64,000 bases of DNA, taken from a bacterium. GTDB lineage: Bacteria; Verrucomicrobiota; Kiritimatiellia; CAIKKV01; CAITUY01. Position 1 is the stretch's first letter. Each line of letters starts with the position of its first letter. Location of the stretch: assembly GCA_037132275.1 (NCBI GenBank), contig JBAXPK010000009.1:1655-65654 (forward strand), read 5' to 3'. Below are positions 22,540 through 28,835 of this stretch, in pieces. The notes under the pieces were generated by a model. The model was not told the origin of the DNA. It made no database searches and was given only the letters and a program-made list of their open reading frames with translations. The position numbers were made by a program, and so were the translations under genes.

Positions 22540-22677
22540 GAGCCTTTCTCCCTCTCGATGGTTATCGCATTTGATTCAGCCCCTGTATTCTGGGGAACTG
22601 TAGCCTAATGTCCAGCGGTTATTATTCGTTCAGATGGAATTGGGATCATCTGCGATCAGGTGCAACCGCGTAAAAGA

Positions 22678-22746
22678 TCCGAACCACCGGCCGCACTGTA
22701 CGCCTCGCCCTGTCGGGCTCGTCACCAGTGAGCCGGAACGTTCGCC
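22678..22746 (+). repeat. attC-like site A
   Basis: R'' TCCGAAC, arm CCGGC(CG)CACTG, loop, arm CAGTG(A)GCCGG, spacer AAC, R' GTTCGCC. Confidence 0.55.
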
Positions 22747-22758
22747 CCGAAAAGATGA

Positions 22759-22786
22759 TTGACGTAAGTATAACTTCGGTTATACT
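22759..22786 (+). promoter_or_regulatory. Candidate promoter/operator of cassette 1
   Basis: TTGACG (22759-22764), 16-nt spacer, TATACT (22781-22786). A perfect 8-bp inverted repeat AGTATAAC-TTCG-GTTATACT (22767-22786) overlaps the -10. Confidence 0.4.
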
Positions 22787-22794
22787 ATTTGATT

Positions 22795-23031
22795 ATGAAA
22801 ACGGCTATATCAATACCGGATGACATCTTCAGCGCGGCGGAGAATTTCGCCCATCAAAGTCACTTGAGCCGAAGCGCTCTGTTTACTCGCGCTTTGGTGG
22901 AATTCCTGTCTCGTCGGCGGAATGAAGGGGTGACGGAACGGCTCAATCGACTGTACAGCAGTGAAGAGTCTCACCTTGATGAAACCCTTTTGAAAATGCA
23001 GGCTTCCGTGGTTTCCAAGGAGAAATGGTAA
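22795..23031 (+). CDS. Ribbon-helix-helix (CopG-like) antitoxin
   Basis: MKTAISIPDDIFSAAE..SRSALFTRAL RHH pattern. It overlaps the downstream MazF-like gene. Confidence 0.75.
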   Translation: MKTAISIPDDIFSAAENFAHQSHLSRSALFTRALVEFLSRRRNEGVTERLNRLYSSEESHLDETLLKMQASVVSKEKW

Positions 23032-23369
23032 TGCACCGGGGCGAGATCTGGTGGGCATCTCTGGGTGAACCTGAAGGGTCAGGGCCGGGCTATCGGCGCC
23101 CCGTACTGATCGTGCAATCGGATGAATTTAATCGTAGCCGGATCAGCACCGTCATAGTTGTGGTTCTCACGTCCAATGTTGCCCTGGCTCAAGCACCGGG
23201 TAATGTTCTGCTCAAAGCGCGGCATGCGGGACTTGCCAAGGACTCCGTAGTCAATGTCTCGCAGGTGATCACAGTGGACAAGCAATGTCTGACCGAAAAG
23301 GTAAAGAAGCTGGAATCATCCGCGATGGCGGAAATCGATAATGGGCTGCGGCTTGTTTTAGCCATTTGA
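23025..23369 (+). CDS. mazF: MazF/PemK-family toxin (endoribonuclease)
   Basis: RGEIWWASLGEPEGSGPGYRRPVLIVQSDEFN..VVVLTS is the PemK signature. Confidence 0.85.
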   Translation: MVMHRGEIWWASLGEPEGSGPGYRRPVLIVQSDEFNRSRISTVIVVVLTSNVALAQAPGNVLLKARHAGLAKDSVVNVSQVITVDKQCLTEKVKKLESSAMAEIDNGLRLVLAI

Positions 23370-23374
23370 AACTC

Positions 23375-23435
23375 GGCGAACAACACCTCGGAGTTTACGT
23401 CGCTGACGCGCCGAAACTCAAGGTGAGCGTTCGCC
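23375..23435 (+). repeat. attC-like site B
   Basis: R'' GGCGAAC, AA, CACCTCGGAGTTT, loop ACGTCGCTGACGCGCCG, AAACTCAAGGTG, AGC, R' GTTCGCC. Confidence 0.6.
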
Positions 23436-23475
23436 ATATATAAGACGGACAGGAAAAATGTTTGTATGCACGCCA

Positions 23476-23496
23476 GGTATGATATATAGTCATACC
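23476..23496 (+). promoter_or_regulatory. Candidate operator of cassette 2
   Basis: Perfect inverted repeat GGTATGA-TATATAG-TCATACC. It ends 20 nt upstream of the ATG at 23517 and is followed by AAAAGAGG. Confidence 0.35.
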
Positions 23497-23516
23497 ATAA
23501 CTTAAAAGAGGCATAT

Positions 23517-23759
23517 ATGGCTGTCGCAAAAATTGCTATTTCACTGGAAGAGGACATTCTTGTTGAGCTCGACCGACTTGTGCGGCGGCATATTTTCCCC
23601 AATCGAAGCCGCGCCATTCAGGAGGCGGTAATGGAAAAGGTGACGCGTCTCTCCGCCAACCGTCTTGCGACTGAGTGCGCAAAACTCGATCCCAAGGCGG
23701 AACAGGCCTTGGCTGAGGAAGGAATGTCCAAGGAGGTCGCCTCATGGCCAGAATATTGA
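23517..23759 (+). CDS. Ribbon-helix-helix (CopG-like) antitoxin
   Basis: [35 protein letters not shown] pattern. It overlaps the downstream toxin gene. Confidence 0.75.
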
Positions 23760-24106
23760 GGGGCGACCTCGTCTGGGCTGACCTGAACCCGGTAAAGGGG
23801 CATGAACAGGCCGGGCTCCGCCCGGCACTGATCCTCAGCCCGGAGATATTCAATGATCGCTCCGGAACGGTGATTGCCATGGCGCTCACAAGTCAACCGC
23901 AGAGGGCGGGATTCCCGCTCACCATGGAAATCACAAGCGTTTCCCTCCCGAAGCCGACCTGGGTGAAGATCAGCCAGATCAGAACGCTTTCCGTTGAGCG
24001 ATTGGGCAAGCGAATGGGACATGTTTCTGATGCCGAGATGAGCCAAATCATCGAAGGACTGAATGAAATCATCGGCGAACAAGCAAATTCAGGCTATCGC
24101 CGCTGA
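23744..24106 (+). CDS. mazF: MazF/PemK-family toxin
   Basis: [34 protein letters not shown]. The 3' end lies inside attC-like site C. Confidence 0.85.
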
Positions 24107-24137
24107 GCGCGGCTCAGCCTGATTTGCACCGTTGGGC
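24074..24137 (+). repeat. attC-like site C
   Basis: R'' GGCGAAC, AA, GCAAATTCAGGCT, loop, AGCCTGATTTGC (one T bulged), ACC, R' GTTGGGC (fits GTTRRRY). Confidence 0.6.
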
Positions 24138-24161
24138 CGATCAATGAAAATTGAACACCAC

Positions 24162-24190
24162 TTGACGTAGATACTTAATGTATATACATT
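24162..24190 (+). promoter_or_regulatory. Candidate sigma70-type promoter of the brnTA cassette
   Basis: TTGACG (24162-24167), 17-nt spacer, TACATT (24185-24190). The -10 ends 7 nt before the brnT ATG. Confidence 0.35.
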
Positions 24191-24197
24191 GCTGCCA

Positions 24198-24476
24198 ATG
24201 AAGTTCACATGGGATGAGGAAAAGAATGCGATCAACCGGCAATAACACGGGATCGATTTTGATGACGTCTCGACTGTTTTCGAGAAGCCCATGGTGACGT
24301 TCCTTGACCAGAGGAAAGAGTATGGTGAGGACAGATGGGTGGGAATTGGATGGCTTAGCGACATTCTGGCGGTGATTGTGTTTACCGAGCCCGATGACGA
24401 GACCATCCGGGTTATCTCCGCCCGAAAGGCAAAACGACATGAAGCACACATCTACAAACAAGAAATCAGGAACTGA
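24198..24476 (+). pseudogene. brnT: BrnT (DUF497) toxin gene interrupted by an in-frame TAA at 24243-24245
   Basis: The frame reads MKFTWDEEKNAINRQ*HGIDFDDVSTVFEKPMVTF...IRVISARKAKRHE. The stop replaces the conserved Lys of the N..KHG motif. Confidence 0.75.
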
Positions 24477-24705
24477 CTGGACCCGCCTTCGCGAGATGAA
24501 GGACGAGGACATTGATGTCTCCGATATTCCCGTGATTGACCGATCCATGTTGAAGAAAATGGTCATTCGGATGCCGGAGAAAAAGTCCCCGGTTTCAATC
24601 CGTCTCGATCCCGGTGTGATTGAATGGTTCCGGCGGCAGGGGCAAGGATACCAGACGCGAATCAATGCAGTTCTTAAATCCTATGTTGAGGCGCATTCGC
24701 ATTGA
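24439..24705 (+). CDS. brnA: BrnA-type antitoxin
   Basis: MKHTSTNKKSGTDWTRL..DEDIDVSDIP..VSIRLDPGVIEWFRRQGQGYQTRINAVLKSYV is the BrnA pattern. It overlaps the brnT 3' end. Confidence 0.8.
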   Translation: MKHTSTNKKSGTDWTRLREMKDEDIDVSDIPVIDRSMLKKMVIRMPEKKSPVSIRLDPGVIEWFRRQGQGYQTRINAVLKSYVEAHSH

Positions 24706-24723
24706 TCATCAGATGATGAACCC

Positions 24724-24787
24724 GCCCAACAACTCCTCGGAGAGTTTACGTCGCTAATCGCGCCGAAACTCAAGGTCACCGTTCGGT
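24724..24787 (+). repeat. attC-like site D
   Basis: R'' GCCCAAC (fits RYYYAAC), AA, CTCCTCGGAGAGTTT, loop ACGTCGCTAATCGCGCCG, AAACTCAAGGTCAC, R' GTTCGGT. It is a paralogue of site B. Confidence 0.6.
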
Positions 24788-24806
24788 CTCGCAAATTATG
24801 ATTGAT

Positions 24807-24838
24807 CCACACATGAGAGTGTGTGATGATGTGTGTGG
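24807..24838 (+). promoter_or_regulatory. Inverted-repeat-rich candidate operator upstream of vapB
   Basis: CCACACAT..CACACA-TGAGAG-TGTGTG..ATGTGTGTGG, followed by GGAGGA and the ATG at 24849. Confidence 0.3.
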
Positions 24839-24848
24839 AGGAAATGAT

Positions 24849-25049
24849 ATGGCAACAAACCTACAACTCGATGACAAGCTGATCAAGCAAGCCGTCGCAC
24901 TTGGTTGTCACCGCACAAAGAGGGCGGCGGTGACACAGGCGTTGTCTGACTACATTCGCAACCTTCAGCAGGAGAAGATTCTTGATCTGTTTGGGAAGGT
25001 CGACTTCACCCAGGGATATGACTATAAACGGCAGCGGGCTAAAGCATGA
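24849..25049 (+). CDS. vapB: VapB-family antitoxin
   Basis: MATNLQLDDKLIKQAVALG..TKRAAVTQAL pattern. ATGA overlap with the PIN gene. Confidence 0.75.
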   Translation: MATNLQLDDKLIKQAVALGCHRTKRAAVTQALSDYIRNLQQEKILDLFGKVDFTQGYDYKRQRAKA

Positions 25050-25507
25050 GAGTACTCGTTGATACGAGTATTTGGTCGCTCGCTCTACGCCGGTCAGGGC
25101 ATGTCCAGAATCCGGAAGCTGAGGAGTTGAAGCGCCTGATTGGTTTGCATGTGGTGGAAATCATTGGGCCCATCCGTCAGGAGATCCTCTCTGGGGTGAG
25201 GGAGCAGTCGCAGTTTAATCAACTGGAATCACAACTCGCTGTATTTCCTGATCTGCCACTGCATTCCGAGGACTTCGCGACAGCAGCCAAAATGTTCAAT
25301 GTATGCCGTTCAAAGGGCATTCAGGGTTCAAATACTGATTTCCTGATCTGCGCGGTTGCTGTGCGGTACGATTTTGCAGTCTTCACGACGGATGCCGACT
25401 TTCGTCTTTTCGCCAAGTGCCTGCCCATCGTCATTCATGAATTCAAAACAATGGCCGAACCACACCGTGTTCCGTACGGCTCGCAAGCTCGCCGCCGGAA
25501 ACGGTGA
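25046..25507 (+). CDS. vapC: PIN-domain VapC toxin
   Basis: MRVLVDTSIW..E..TDFLICAVA..FTTDADF acidic PIN residues. The C-terminal tail is encoded inside attC-like site E. Confidence 0.8.
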   Translation: MRVLVDTSIWSLALRRSGHVQNPEAEELKRLIGLHVVEIIGPIRQEILSGVREQSQFNQLESQLAVFPDLPLHSEDFATAAKMFNVCRSKGIQGSNTDFLICAVAVRYDFAVFTTDADFRLFAKCLPIVIHEFKTMAEPHRVPYGSQARRRKR

Positions 25508-25516
25508 CCGTTCGCT
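25454..25516 (+). repeat. attC-like site E
   Basis: R'' GCCGAAC, CAC, ACCGTGTTCCG, loop TACGGCTCGCAAGCTCGCCG, CGGAAACGGT (one G bulged), GAC, R' GTTCGCT. Confidence 0.6.
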
Positions 25517-25576
25517 CAATAAAAGAGGGATTGATAAAATGGGCTAATTTAGAGATAGTACTCGAAGGTGACAAAC

Positions 25577-25783
25577 ATGGTTATGATACATCCAGAATAT
25601 GTGGTTGACGCGCAACAGCATCGAAAGGCTGTCTTATTGCCTGTGGTCGAATGGGAACAGATCGTTGATGAGCTCGAGGAGCTGGATGATATACGAGCTT
25701 ATGACCAGGCGAAGGCTTCCTCTCAGGAAAAGATTCCCTTTGAGCAGGCCGTCCGGGAGATCCGCCTCGGAATCGGCGCATGA
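25577..25783 (+). CDS. Antitoxin partnered with the RelE/ParE toxin (Phd/RelB-like, unclassified)
   Basis: Small acidic protein (..VVEWEQIVDELEELDDIRAYDQAK..). SD GAAGGTG lies upstream of the ATG at 25577. ATGA overlap with the toxin. Confidence 0.65.
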   Translation: MVMIHPEYVVDAQQHRKAVLLPVVEWEQIVDELEELDDIRAYDQAKASSQEKIPFEQAVREIRLGIGA

Positions 25784-26034
25784 GTTACGGGCTTGAAATC
25801 TTACGTGCAGCCCAAAAGCAACTCGCTCAAATTACACCGGTTGATCGAGATCGAATTGTCTCTGCTATCAAGGATTTGGCGGATGCCCCTCGTCCCGCCG
25901 GGTGCAAAAAGCTTTCAGGCCGTCCCGGCTGGCGTATCCGAATAGGCTCTTACCGGGTCATCTATGAGATCCATGATGACAAGTTGATGATACTTGTCGT
26001 CACTGTTGGCCACCGAAGAGAAATATACCGATAG
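25780..26034 (+). CDS. relE: RelE/ParE-family toxin
   Basis: ..KKLSGRPGWRIRIGSYRVIYEIHDDKLMILVVTVGHRREIY is the classic RelE/StbE C-terminus. Confidence 0.85.
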   Translation: MSYGLEILRAAQKQLAQITPVDRDRIVSAIKDLADAPRPAGCKKLSGRPGWRIRIGSYRVIYEIHDDKLMILVVTVGHRREIYR

Positions 26035-26208
26035 CGAACCAGCTCTTACCACGACGGCTCGCATGCTCGCCGCAGGTCAAGAGTCACGTGTGCGCCCGGC
26101 ATGGCGCACGACTAGTGGGTGAAAGACCCATACGGAGCCGTACGTCCGGTGGTGCGAGAGCTGGGGGAGGGAACCCTCCCCTGGCTACTCGATTGGGGAA
26201 TGAGATTA
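26033..26208 (+). repeat. attC-like site F, split by a 114-bp insertion at the crossover point
   Basis: R'' AGCGAAC, CAG, CTCTTACC, loop ACGACGGCTCGCATGCTCGCCGCA, GGTCAAGAG, TCAC, G(26088) then the insertion, then TTGGGG (26203-26208). Confidence 0.5.
26089..26202 (+). other. 114-bp hairpin-dense insertion inside attC-like site F
   Basis: Terminal hairpin GTGCGCC-CGGCAT-GGCGCAC (26090-26109). GGGT-GAAAG-ACCC (26117-26129). GGGGAGGG-AA-CCCTCCCC (26164-26181). Deleting it restores GTTGGGG. Confidence 0.5.
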
Positions 26209-26235
26209 TAAAGATGATGGATAGGAATTAATTCA

Positions 26236-26310
26236 ATGTGGGAGGGGCACTCCGTGCCGCGACAGGTTCAAGAGAGAGTCTGAACGAGACAAGAATCGCG
26301 CCTCCCACAT
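26236..26310 (+). ncRNA. Candidate structured element (three-way junction) in an ORF-less cassette
   Basis: Perfect 10-bp closing stem ATGTGGGAGG/CCTCCCACAT. It encloses GGCAC-TCC-GTGCC and GCGA..GTTCA-AGAGAGAGTC-TGAAC..TCGC. Function and strand unknown. Confidence 0.3.
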
Positions 26311-26343
26311 GGGGTGAACTCAGGGTGATCAAAACGAGGACGA

Positions 26344-26407
26344 CCCCAACAACACACTCGTGCCTACCGTCGCTAAACGCTCCGGCGGCACAGTGTGAAC
26401 GTTCGGT
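26344..26407 (+). repeat. attC-like site G
   Basis: R'' CCCCAAC, AA, CACACTCGTGCC, loop TACCGTCGCTAAACGCTCCGGC, GGCACAGTGTG (one C bulged), AAC, R' GTTCGGT. Confidence 0.6.
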
Positions 26408-26422
26408 GTGAGGAATGACAAT

Positions 26423-26689
26423 ATGTGGGAAGTGATTTCGAAATACTATTGTATTGACTGGATTGCATTGGTGCTGAATGCAGTTGCAATTTTTCTTCTC
26501 GGGAAGAAACGAAAGGCGGGTTGGTCGCTGGGTGTTGTAGCCAACATTTTCTGGATTGTATTCGGCATCCTTGCGCACAGCGTGGCGACAATGGTTGCCT
26601 GCAGCATTTTCGTCGCTCTGAATGTGAAGGGTTGGTGGAACTGGAGCAAAGAGCAAGCACCGCCCCAGCAGGATGCAGGCGACGCTTAA
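26423..26689 (+). CDS. 88-aa three-TM membrane protein with possible PnuC-like half-transporter resemblance
   Basis: MWEVISKYYCIDWIALVLNAVAIFLLGKKRKAGW..NIFWIVFGI..ACSIFVALNVKGWWNW. Three hydrophobic helices and Trp-rich motifs reminiscent of PnuC. This is a weak call. Confidence 0.4.
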   Translation: MWEVISKYYCIDWIALVLNAVAIFLLGKKRKAGWSLGVVANIFWIVFGILAHSVATMVACSIFVALNVKGWWNWSKEQAPPQQDAGDA

Positions 26690-27336
26690 CCACGGGCCTG
26701 ATCCGCATGGTTCTTGGGTTGGTTCACCCTGCGAATGCAGAGGGTATCATCTCTTGAGCGATATTTTTCGAGTACCCGTGTGAGCCTCTTCATGGGCAGG
26801 CCGATGACGGGGGCGATGTCGCCGTCGATGCGTTCAACAATAGCGGCGGAATAGGGATCCTGAATCGCATAAGCGCCTGCCCAACCGAGTGGGTGGGTGA
26901 GGGTCACATAGCGTCGGATTCGGTCAGGCGACCACTTCCTCAGAGTGACGGTTGCCGACTCCACCCATCTGACCACCCTGATTTTTCCGCCTTTTGCGGT
27001 CGGGGGAATGATGACGCAGGCCGCGCTGCTAATCCGGTGCGGCCGCCGGCCCAACTGGGTGAGCATGCGCCGGGCGGCGGCGAGGGAAGCGGGTTTCCCA
27101 ATGATTTTGCCGTCGAGGATCAGGGCCGTATCGGCTCCGATCACGATGGCGCGGGGATATCGACGGGCCACGGCCCTGGCCTTTAGTAGCGCAAGGGCGA
27201 GTACATGGCGTTTCAGGTTTTCGCCCTTGGCCGGCGCGGGTTCCACCTCATGAGAAGGGATTTGGAGGAAACGGTATCCCGCCCCCCTCAAGAGGGACGC
27301 TCGACCTTTGGATTGTGATGCCAGAATCAGTTTCAT
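26686..27336 (-). CDS. maf: Maf-like nucleoside triphosphate pyrophosphatase
   Basis: MKLILASQSKGRASLL..GADT..GAYAIQ motifs. ATG at 27334-27336 is preferred. The C-terminal tail of about 25 aa has no Maf counterpart. Confidence 0.85.
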   Translation of the reverse strand: MKLILASQSKGRASLLRGAGYRFLQIPSHEVEPAPAKGENLKRHVLALALLKARAVARRYPRAIVIGADTALILDGKIIGKPASLAAARRMLTQLGRRPHRISSAACVIIPPTAKGGKIRVVRWVESATVTLRKWSPDRIRRYVTLTHPLGWAGAYAIQDPYSAAIVERIDGDIAPVIGLPMKRLTRVLEKYRSRDDTLCIRRVNQPKNHADQARG

Positions 27337-27440
27337 GAGCGGACAGCCAGCGTTTTGAAAGCCTACCAGTCCACCCCCCGCAACACCTAATAAAAAAAAC
27401 CGTTTTGAAAATATCGGTCTCACACCTATAATGCCCAGCT

Positions 27441-28835
27441 ATGACTGAACCGGTGTCCGAAAACAAAGAGCAACTTGTCATTGATTTAAATTTTATTCCC
27501 GGATGGGCGCGACGACCGCCCGACGCACGGCCAGCGGGAGGAATGGATAGATTTAATTCCTCCCAGGAGAGCCGGGGCGGCGATTCCAGGAGGCGTGACC
27601 GTCCTGAGCGGTCTGAGCGGCGTTCAGGTGGTGGTGCAAAAAGGCCCGAATTCCGGGATCGCCCGCGCAGCGATTTTGCTCTCCCCGCGCCGAAGCCCGA
27701 TCCTATGGATGAACGTCTGGCCCTGCTGGACGTGACCTTTCTTCCCGAGCGCCGCGGTCTGACACCATTGGCCCATCGGCTGGGGAAATCGGGACGGGCC
27801 TACTCGTTGTTTGAGGTGGCTGCCCTTTTTCTAAGCAAACCGGATTTTTACCTCATCAAGATCGAGGCACCGGCTACCCTTGAAAACTTTTCATTTTGTC
27901 AGTGTGCGGATTGCAAGGCCATCTTCCTTGGCAAAGAGGCTGCCGCCGCCCATGTTTTCGCCAAGCATTTCGAAAAGTTCTGCAAAAAAGAGGATCAGGA
28001 GGCTGAACCTCCGAAGGGAAACTTTGTCTGTATTGCCAAATGCGGCCTGTCGGGTGTCCTGCTAGGCCCGCCGAATTACCATGGCTACAATGACAAGGTG
28101 GCAGAGGTGCATCGTGCCCGATATCCGGATATGCCGATAGAGGCTTACCGGAAACGTATTGAGACGATTCATGATGCGGCCGTGATTGAGCAATGGAAGG
28201 CCGAGATGTGCAAGCAGGCCATTTACCGGTTCGGGGAGGGCGAGAAGGCTGTGACGTTCAGCCGGTTTACCGAGGCCGAGGCTTATTTTCGGGATCACTG
28301 CCTGCCGGGAACGGTCAAGGAGTCGAGGAATGTGGTTGTGCCCGGTGTGATTGCCCATGCGATGGAGCCGGGACCGCTACGCCGGGTAATCGAGGATGTC
28401 TGGCAAAAGGAAAGCCGGTTCCCACTGAAACTTTCGGTCACGCTTCGGTTGGCCTTCCGCCATCTGGGGCTGCACACGTTCAAGGCGGCGGGCGGCTTTA
28501 CGTTTGTCACCTCGGTGGCGCCGAACGCAATTGATCCTGCGCATGCAGTGGAAGGGATCCGGGATATCCTGGATTTTGTTGCCGCCAATCCGGGTTGCTC
28601 GCGGGCAAATCTGCTGTCAAAACTGGTGCCCGAGGCATCCCCCGTGGCCGGGGAGGCTGAGTCGCCGGTAGCGGTAACCATGCCTCCGCGCGAGTCTGAA
28701 CTGCGGCGGCAATTGCAGTGGCTGGTTGAAAAAGGGCATGTGATTGAATTTTCCGACGGGAGCATGGCGGTGCCTGCCACCGCCGTGGCGAGAGTGCAGA
28801 TGGCCCGGCCCAAGGGGAAAAGCCGACGGGAATGA
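27441..28835 (+). CDS. Hypothetical protein with an Arg-rich disordered N-terminus and a C2H2-spaced Cys/His motif
   Basis: 464-aa ORF. It contains RRRDRPERSERRSGGGAKRPEFRDRPR and C-X2-C-X12-H-X4-H at aa 155-176. Confidence 0.6.
   Translation: MTEPVSENKEQLVIDLNFIPGWARRPPDARPAGGMDRFNSSQESRGGDSRRRDRPERSERRSGGGAKRPEFRDRPRSDFALPAPKPDPMDERLALLDVTFLPERRGLTPLAHRLGKSGRAYSLFEVAALFLSKPDFYLIKIEAPATLENFSFCQCADCKAIFLGKEAAAAHVFAKHFEKFCKKEDQEAEPPKGNFVCIAKCGLSGVLLGPPNYHGYNDKVAEVHRARYPDMPIEAYRKRIETIHDAAVIEQWKAEMCKQAIYRFGEGEKAVTFSRFTEAEAYFRDHCLPGTVKESRNVVVPGVIAHAMEPGPLRRVIEDVWQKESRFPLKLSVTLRLAFRHLGLHTFKAAGGFTFVTSVAPNAIDPAHAVEGIRDILDFVAANPGCSRANLLSKLVPEASPVAGEAESPVAVTMPPRESELRRQLQWLVEKGHVIEFSDGSMAVPATAVARVQMARPKGKSRRE

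Follow-up and report, generated by a model that had tools for sequence, protein, structure and literature searches.

Repetitive extragenic palindromes (REPs) are short DNA repeats that REP-associated tyrosine transposases (RAYTs) recognize as folded single-stranded DNA (PMC8266576). REP doublets forming hairpins (REPINs) and the REP-RAYT systems to which they belong have been described (PMC3116915, Bertels and Rainey 2011; PMC3337134; PMC8266576), and REPs have already been reported in the Planctomycetes-Verrucomicrobia-Chlamydiae (PVC) superphylum, in Opitutus terrae (PMC3733652). Here we describe a folded element in a stretch of 64,000 nucleotides from a Kiritimatiellia genome (the window; contig JBAXPK010000009.1 of assembly GCA_037132275.1, positions 1,655 to 65,654). 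The element is the sole cargo of an integron cassette without an open reading frame (ORF), and it is very probably a REPIN served by the RAYT of the same genome, riding as a selfish hitch-hiker in an array that lacks an integrase. What is new here is a REP/RAYT family in a PVC lineage and the REPIN as a kind of cargo for an ORF-less cassette; literature searches on REPs, REPINs, or RAYTs combined with integrons, cassettes, or attC did not turn up any REPIN described as the cargo of a cassette.

Boundaries and homologues of the cassette

The genome to which the window belongs (G000; 2.67 Mb in 116 contigs) was searched with window 26080-26345, and related genomes were searched for the cassette with window 25540-26700. 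All of the genomes compared are fragmented metagenome-assembled genomes (MAGs), in which repeats assemble poorly. The cassette, its parts, and the attC site in front of it are as follows, in window coordinates:

26033-26089, + strand: 5' part of attC F, with R'' AGCGAAC at 26033-26039, the arms and the loop, followed by G26088 and T26089 from the R' core GTT
26194-26401, + strand: ORF-less micro-cassette, beginning with the TT of the G|TT crossover and ending with G26401 in the R' of attC G, with T26089 counted as the first T
26194-26234, + strand: AT-rich leader (TGGGGAATGAGATT...GGAATTAATTC), kept in all cassette copies
26235-26265, + strand: REP arm a, with head AATGTGGGAGG, hairpin GGCAC-TCC-GTGCC, and tail GCGACAG
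26266-26289, + strand: REPIN spacer, which includes the GTTCA..TGAAC helix and differs in sequence between copies
26290-26311, − strand: REP arm b, inverted and truncated; its tail (CAAGAATCGC when read on the + strand) and its head (CCTCCCACATG) are left and the 13-nt hairpin segment is gone
26312-26343, + strand: trailer between the REPIN and attC G, conserved among cassette copies
26344-26407, + strand: attC G, with R'' CCCCAAC at 26344-26350, R' GTTCGGT at 26401-26407, and the crossover at G26401/T26402

As a unit, window 26193-26406 is found again, at 84-88% identity, in seven places: five in contig C59 of the relative G007, one in G007:C22, and one in G006:C138. All seven homologous copies open at GTTGGGG, each after a different upstream attC end, and all seven close at ..GTGTGAAC|GTT, with unrelated flanks beyond (alignment A1). 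The R' formed on circularization, GTTGGGG, is the exact complement of the cassette R'', CCCCAAC (7/7). The unit shows the sequence marks of an integron cassette, namely, a G|TT start after a preceding attC, its own terminal attC, R'/R'' complementarity, and an intI gene in the genome. It is a genuine integron cassette without a gene, with the folded element as its sole cargo. This is what the original prediction had proposed, and the exact limits shared by the seven contexts bear it out. The restored crossover, which had been placed at 26203, needed correction by 10 positions, the core TTGGGG lying at 26193-26198. The absence of a credible ORF was upheld, and the estimate of about 140 bp of unique sequence was revised to about 150 nt of cargo between the corrected crossover and the R'' of attC G at 26344.

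Copies that have diverged further, with about 81% identity in the leader and arm a and with other attC types, are present in G002, G008, G011, G015, and G027. The arrays of G007 hold at least six copies of the cassette, which account for 11 of the 27 REP matches in that genome, and the copy in G007:C22 is 4 kb from intI. The 5' part of attC F has 89-91% identity to attC sites of G007:C59 that run straight into the cassette start, the central part of attC G is similar to that of attC B and D of the window array, and an attC of the G type closes a different cassette in G007:C59. The cassette has probably been copied and shuffled by the integron integrase.

The REP family and its transposase

The cargo is one member of a dispersed repeat family. 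Within the genome of the window, matches to the segment 26231-26266 are found in C9 (upstream of the window), C36, C74, and C92. Most of them form inverted pairs whose members are 50-70 nt apart, and about 12 units with this head are found at 5 loci. Units are of two types that share the head AATGTGGGAGG: type a is that of the left arm of the window element, and type b has the hairpin CGCG-CTCCGT-CGCG and the tail GCGATTCTTG. In C74 and C92, the copies form a-spacer-b(inverted) doublets with a length of 83-90 nt, the same architecture as the window element, and inverted doublets are also seen in 17 copies from other genomes. Twenty doublets from at least 12 genomes were aligned (alignment A2); at arm b, the 19 copies other than that of the window read ..AAGAATCGCCGCG(A)CGGAGCGCGCCTCCCACATT.

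The REP pattern is present in 27 of 61 related genomes of Kiritimatiellia and Verrucomicrobiota, with 1 to 30 matches per relative, and a reversed-pattern control gave close to 0. With at most one mismatch, the pattern AATGTGGGAGGSGCNNTCC was found in 22/27 genomes of the family and in 2/2 genomes of one sister family, and some genomes have the head variants CTGTGGGAGG or TTGTGGGAGG. Copies are found scattered, in both orientations; some form tandem arrays, and some have arm b interrupted by nested insertions. The GTDB contigs that bear the unit come from Kiritimatiellia and Verrucomicrobiota MAGs from lakes.

A candidate enzyme for this family is encoded in the same genome, at C36:4218-4742, where an ORF of 174 amino acids (aa) lies between an a unit (+ strand) and two b units (− strand). 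Its product scores 84.1 bits against the NCBIfam equivalog NF047646 (REP-associated tyrosine transposase; cut-off, 80), matches Pfam Y1_Tnp at 1.9e-10, and reaches 31.8 bits with the IS200 equivalog model, below the cut-off of 55. Its motifs include HWH (HUH) and a tyrosine motif, YIENNP. Orthologues were found in G015, of the same genus (72% identity), and in G018, of another genus of the family (54%). In all three genomes (G000:C36, G015:C18, and G018:C81), unit a stands upstream of the RAYT gene and complete b units stand downstream, and complete REPINs adjoin the orthologues in G015 and G018. The locus of G015 is syntenic with that of G000, with upstream genes that are 74% identical. Judged from these sequences, the RAYT gene is bracketed by the units in the way that defines a REP/RAYT system, which makes the doublets REPINs. 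Three marks of a REPIN family are found: a short imperfect palindrome that is repeated with a conserved flank, the inverted doublet, and a RAYT gene flanked by inverted REPs. The element in the cassette is identified as a REPIN because its units occur as inverted doublets and directly flank an apparently single-copy RAYT gene.

Other Y1 transposases of the same genome and of G007, G008, G019, G033, and G037 were considered as the cognate enzyme, and none of them is flanked by this repeat. The Y1 gene at G037:C3 is flanked by a different palindrome.

Several further features of the family were observed. About 1 kb upstream of the window start, at C9:532-626, a LacI-family ORF of 563 aa contains two REP units that face outward. 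They are in frame within its proline-rich C-terminal extension, and the repeat appears to be tolerated within, or to have extended, this coding region. REPINs of 114-120 nt (L058-L060, L076, and L093, from G014, G016, and related MAGs; L057/L092, from G006:C67) contain a nested extra palindrome of about 30 nt in arm b, a secondary insertion into the REP hairpin, and this composite is conserved across several genomes. In the ELA110 MAG (L077 and L094), complete REPINs form head-to-tail tandem arrays with about 117 nt from start to start. Direct repeats in C36 had been considered as a CRISPR or tandem-repeat array; they are a 52-nt tandem duplication of arm b and not an array. In the sequencing run of the probable source metagenome (X1), the summed contig depth over arm a (26223-26261) is about 60 times that of flanking single-copy sequence. 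The REP unit is very abundant in the X1 community, this depth ratio not being a copy number.

Fold of the window copy

The 10-bp stem from which the original prediction started, ATGTGGGAGG at 26236-26245 with its partner CCTCCCACAT at 26301-26310, is present as described, and so are the elements enclosed by it, GGCAC-TCC-GTGCC (26246-26258) and GCGA..GTTCA..TGAAC..TCGC. As RNA, the 87-nt stretch folds with −35.3 kcal/mol on either strand (z scores of −3.4 and −3.7), an energy that 0/200 dinucleotide shuffles matched; as DNA, it folds with −18.5 kcal/mol (z score of −3.6). The fold of the window copy exceeds chance. An intact REPIN copy reaches −34.5 kcal/mol as DNA (z score of −7.1), which is nearly twice the value of the window copy.

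The proposed three-way junction held for the window copy, in its stems and in a fold better than that of the shuffles, but it is not conserved. The consensus fold of the 20 copies of alignment A2 (RNAalifold) is a single long hairpin in which arm a pairs with arm b. Arm b is intact in 19/20 aligned copies, and 13 nt (CGCCGCG.CGGAG) are missing from the window copy only. The b hairpin was lost from this copy because of the 13-nt deletion in its right arm, and it is this gap in arm b that gives the element the look of a three-way junction. Collapse of the assembly in the palindrome is a possible source of the gap. Among Logan contigs of the probable source metagenome, none runs across 26301-26339, where the gap would show. 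Whether the gap is real or an assembly collapse, the three-way junction is a peculiarity of the window copy and not a property of the family. The window copy is probably a decaying member that has lost its b hairpin and is inert as a transposase substrate.

Base pairing was also counted over the 20 copies, with a structure that included the helices noticed at first. Of all cells, 90.7% are paired, and sliding the partners lowers this share to 46.5% at most. Hardly any variation is seen in the terminal helix. Covariation, by which the original prediction proposed to judge the structure, was found in the REP hairpins (helices 2 and 5), which are paired in 94% and 99% of cells and show compensatory changes from A-U to G-C (4 cells) and from G-C to A-U (5 cells). 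The same did not apply to the inner GTTCA/TGAAC helix, which is paired in only 58% of cells and belongs to a spacer of variable sequence.

Genome setting and neighboring elements

The cassette belongs to an array of toxin-antitoxin cassettes on the + strand (window 22540-26690), with two MazEF-type pairs, BrnT/BrnA, VapBC, and RelB/ParE, each cassette being followed by an attC-type site (R'' ..GAAC/..CAAC, R' GTTCGNN). The array is flanked by an rfbA-like gene and maf. No integrase was found next to the window array, which is of the CALIN type (cluster of attC sites lacking an integron integrase). An integron integrase gene is encoded elsewhere in the genome, at C31:30036-30980 (TIGR02249, 390 bits; cut-off, 265). 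This gene is near the contig end, so that the genome contains, in addition to the integrase-less array, at least one integron that is complete.

The ORF-less cassette is followed by a next, independent cassette:

26402-26689, + strand: cassette for a PnuC-like mini-protein with three transmembrane segments, ORF 26408/26423-26689 (Pfam PF04973, E 3.4e-9)

The mini-protein has 88-93 aa, half the size of a normal PnuC. The 3' end of its cassette overlaps the maf stop, and a clear terminal attC was not seen there. In the homologues of this protein in G033:C65 and G038:C435, the region of homology begins at the crossover or just behind it, and no REP lies upstream.

Upstream, attC F is interrupted by another element:

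26090-26193, + strand: internally deleted group IIC intron relic of 104 nt, between GT and T of the R' of attC F and outside the cassette cargo

The relic consists of the first ~40 nt of an intron (GTGCG...GGGTGAAAGACCC) fused to the last ~64 nt, which comprise the 3' half of domain 5 and domain 6 with its bulged A and end in CTCGAT. Domains 1-6 with a catalytic domain 5 are not present in 26090-26193, which makes it a relic and not an intron. An uninterrupted relative of about 727 nt, without an ORF, lies at the same kind of attC site in G024:C112 (L043 1498-2224); it opens with GTGCGCCCGGCATGG and ends with CTACTCGAT. This sequence reaches 86.5 bits with RF02001 and 44.6 bits with RF00029, both above gathering, and it is therefore an ORF-less group II intron of the class C type. 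The halves of the relic match it at 90-91%. The empty site is seen at G007:C59:2-132, where an F-type attC is joined directly to the cassette start. One contig from an RNA library joins 26088 to 26193; its most likely source is a relative that lacks the insert. On sequence grounds, relic and full-length copy represent a lineage of group IIC introns that insert on the top strand, at GT|T of attC R' cores. A second 5' fragment of the same intron follows an attC at C61:74-120 of the genome of the window.

Weighing of the explanations

The original prediction had taken the element for a small RNA, a ribozyme or riboswitch-like RNA, or a protein-binding DNA site. The RNA options were not supported. 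No match at E<=10 was obtained with Rfam under permissive filters for 26194-26407 (scan of 25000-27500), and none at gathering thresholds falls in the element in a scan of the whole window; the only Rfam match near the element is the intron relic (RF02003, 18 bits). Moreover, the junction is copy specific, the spacer is not structurally conserved, and unrelated cassettes follow elsewhere. The protein-binding DNA site came closest of the three, in that the arms are REP units and the RAYT gene is flanked by the same units; the binding itself would be by analogy with known systems. Among the observations that had been named as speaking against a functional RNA, one, a lack of homologues, is the opposite of what was found, and the abundant homologues show a mobile DNA repeat rather than an RNA gene. 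Another, a small conserved peptide ORF, was not found either: there are open stretches in every frame, and the frame is shifted between homologous copies by 13-nt, 3-nt, and 1-nt indels.

A mini-frame of 5-6 codons in the leader (26200-26234; ATGATGGATAGGAATTAA, MMDRN-like, ATG..TAA/TGA) is found in many cassette copies, while others lack it. Its stop lies inside a GGAATTRATTC motif, and a ribosome-binding site is not evident. It may be a chance by-product of the GATGATGGAT motif.

Some findings count against the identification of the cargo as a REPIN with a cognate RAYT. The copy number is low for a REPIN family, with about 5 loci in this genome and 1-30 pattern matches per relative. A GTAG/CGTC tag was not found next to the stem, whose flanks are ..GGGAGG and GCGAC.. 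and which carries the head AATGTGGGAGG. Close orthologues of the RAYT occur in only 3/27 REP-bearing genomes; the genome of the window has one orthologue-grade match, and for most of the other REP-bearing MAGs no orthologue was found, all of these genomes being incomplete. The link between REP and RAYT is direct in three genomes and inferred in the others. The cassette leader and trailer are about as conserved as the arms, and they extend to some copies with no detected leader or attC, several of which have a degenerate leader beside arm a or a related GGGGRAAMTC.. tail after arm b. The mobile unit may thus be longer than a minimal REPIN, or the cassette flanks may be functional. Finally, cassette fragments are present in contigs of two RNA libraries, and a transcript role is possible.

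This last point bears on a first alternative, in which the cassette is a small regulatory RNA or another cis-acting RNA signal with the palindrome as its core, its likeness to REPs being an exaptation. ORF-less cassettes with regulatory RNAs or promoters are documented (PMC8876359), and conservation of the leader and trailer matches that of the arms. Parts of the cassette are covered by metatranscriptomic contigs (26297-26403 in X13 and 26193-26259 in X21), one of them with an intact arm b. These runs were, however, available as contigs only, which give no strand, ends, or expression level and cannot show transcription. The scan of the cassette revealed no sigma-70-like promoter and no intrinsic terminator on the + strand; one weak terminator-like site on the − strand (26348-26335) is no more than is seen in shuffles. 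Together with the missing Rfam match and the poor conservation of the spacer helix, the behavior of the doublet, which is dispersed in both orientations, found in tandem, and placed at the flanks of a transposase gene, makes this alternative unlikely. A mobile DNA repeat suffices without an RNA product, and our reading is that the element has no dedicated RNA product.

The doublet could also have been exapted as an array module, a stem-loop that stabilizes the upstream relB/parE transcript, attenuates read-through into the next cassette, or modulates the folding of neighboring attC sites; such a role would account for its retention in several copies per array. The roles that PMC3733652 mentions as proposed for REPs include transcription termination, mRNA stabilization, and DNA supercoiling; the intact hairpin is very stable, and at least six copies are spread through the arrays of G007. 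Such multiplicity is, however, equally expected of a selfish cassette. No U-tract follows the hairpin, the neighbors differ in every context, and the damage to the window copy speaks against purifying selection at this locus. We consider an array function to have a low probability.

More improbable is a derivative of the MITE/PATE type (miniature inverted-repeat or palindrome-associated transposable element) of an IS200/IS605-family element, moved by an ordinary multicopy TnpA and not the REPIN of a domesticated RAYT. The flanked gene does match Pfam Y1_Tnp and, weakly, the IS200 model (31.8 bits), other Y1_Tnp genes are present in the genome, and the extended leader and trailer are reminiscent of terminal inverted repeats of greater length. 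Nevertheless, the IS200 score falls far short of the cut-off (55) of that model, while the cut-off of the RAYT equivalog is passed. The genome has one orthologue-grade match, and synteny of the gene extends to a second species of the genus. None of the other Y1 genes examined has this repeat as a flank, and a tnpB partner is absent from the 525-nt interval.

Genes for PnuC-family transporters are commonly controlled by riboswitches. A riboswitch or leader controlling the PnuC-like gene, about 100 nt downstream of the element, can nevertheless be dismissed, as a complete attC and crossover lie between the two, homologous cassettes precede six unrelated sequences, the PnuC-like homologues of G033 and G038 are without the element (with no pattern match at <=1 mismatch in the G038 assembly), and the junction is not conserved.

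Proposed mechanism and significance

For the REPIN, a coherent course of events can be proposed. The RAYT would recognize the REP hairpins as folded single-stranded DNA, by analogy with the characterized TnpA(REP). A REPIN may have entered an ancestral cassette or may have been captured together with it. The integron integrase would then have multiplied and moved the cassette, at least six copies of which are present in the sister genome G007. If the element affects the array at all, it would do so generically, as a strong stem-loop in a read-through transcript.

More tentatively, the REPIN-bearing cassette may be a distinct chimeric mobile unit, copied and moved by IntI and not by the RAYT, which could travel between genomes with the cassette pool; we regard this as possible and rather doubtful. 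If true, cassette-borne REPINs would contradict the current view that REPINs are inherited solely vertically. Integrons would provide a route for RAYT-independent amplification and horizontal transfer if the integrase does spread cassette-borne REPINs. It would also offer a further explanation for part of the unexplained gene-less cassettes of environmental integrons, and three systems that act on folded single-stranded DNA hairpins would be tied together, namely, IntI with attC, RAYT with REP, and the top-strand group IIC intron at one attC.

The analysis replaces a candidate "new structured RNA" with a concrete and testable identity. It documents a REP/RAYT system in Kiritimatiellia with two arm types and an 11-nt head, of which one lineage is packaged as a cassette that has apparently been multiplied within arrays. 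The stretch of 400 bp is a compact natural case of three nested mobile systems that target hairpins.

Comparison with known systems

Like the group IIC-attC introns described previously (PMC3001079), the intron at this locus is a IIC-type ribozyme at the R' end of an attC hairpin, and ORF-less and truncated derivatives are known in both cases. The described introns occupy the bottom strand and run against the direction of cassette transcription, in contrast with the relic and its full-length relative, which lie on the top strand, between GT and T. The relic differs from the described introns also in that only its two ends are left.

The cassette resembles known ORF-less integron cassettes (PMC8876359) in being short and gene-less, with a classical attC at its 3' end, and in occurring at several array positions and in several genomes. 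Those described carry promoters in Treponema and regulatory RNAs in Xanthomonas, whereas the cargo here is a DNA repeat associated with a transposase.

The repeat itself behaves like those of the GTAG/CGTC-tagged REP superfamilies (Di Nocera et al. 2013, PMC3733652), being a REP-type stem-loop associated with a RAYT, but neither tag stands by the stem, and the conserved flank is the 11-nt head. With the REPIN/RAYT systems (PMC3116915, PMC8266576), it shares short palindromic REPs with a conserved head, inverted doublets with a variable spacer that form one long hairpin, a dispersed multicopy population, and a syntenic and apparently single-copy Y1/HUH gene bracketed by inverted units. It differs from known REPINs in its host, a freshwater Kiritimatiellia lineage and not a proteobacterium, in a head (AATGTGGGAGG) without the GTAG/CGTC tag, in its two distinct arm types (a and b), and in an apparently low copy number. 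Unlike in those systems, moreover, one sub-lineage of this family sits inside integron cassettes.

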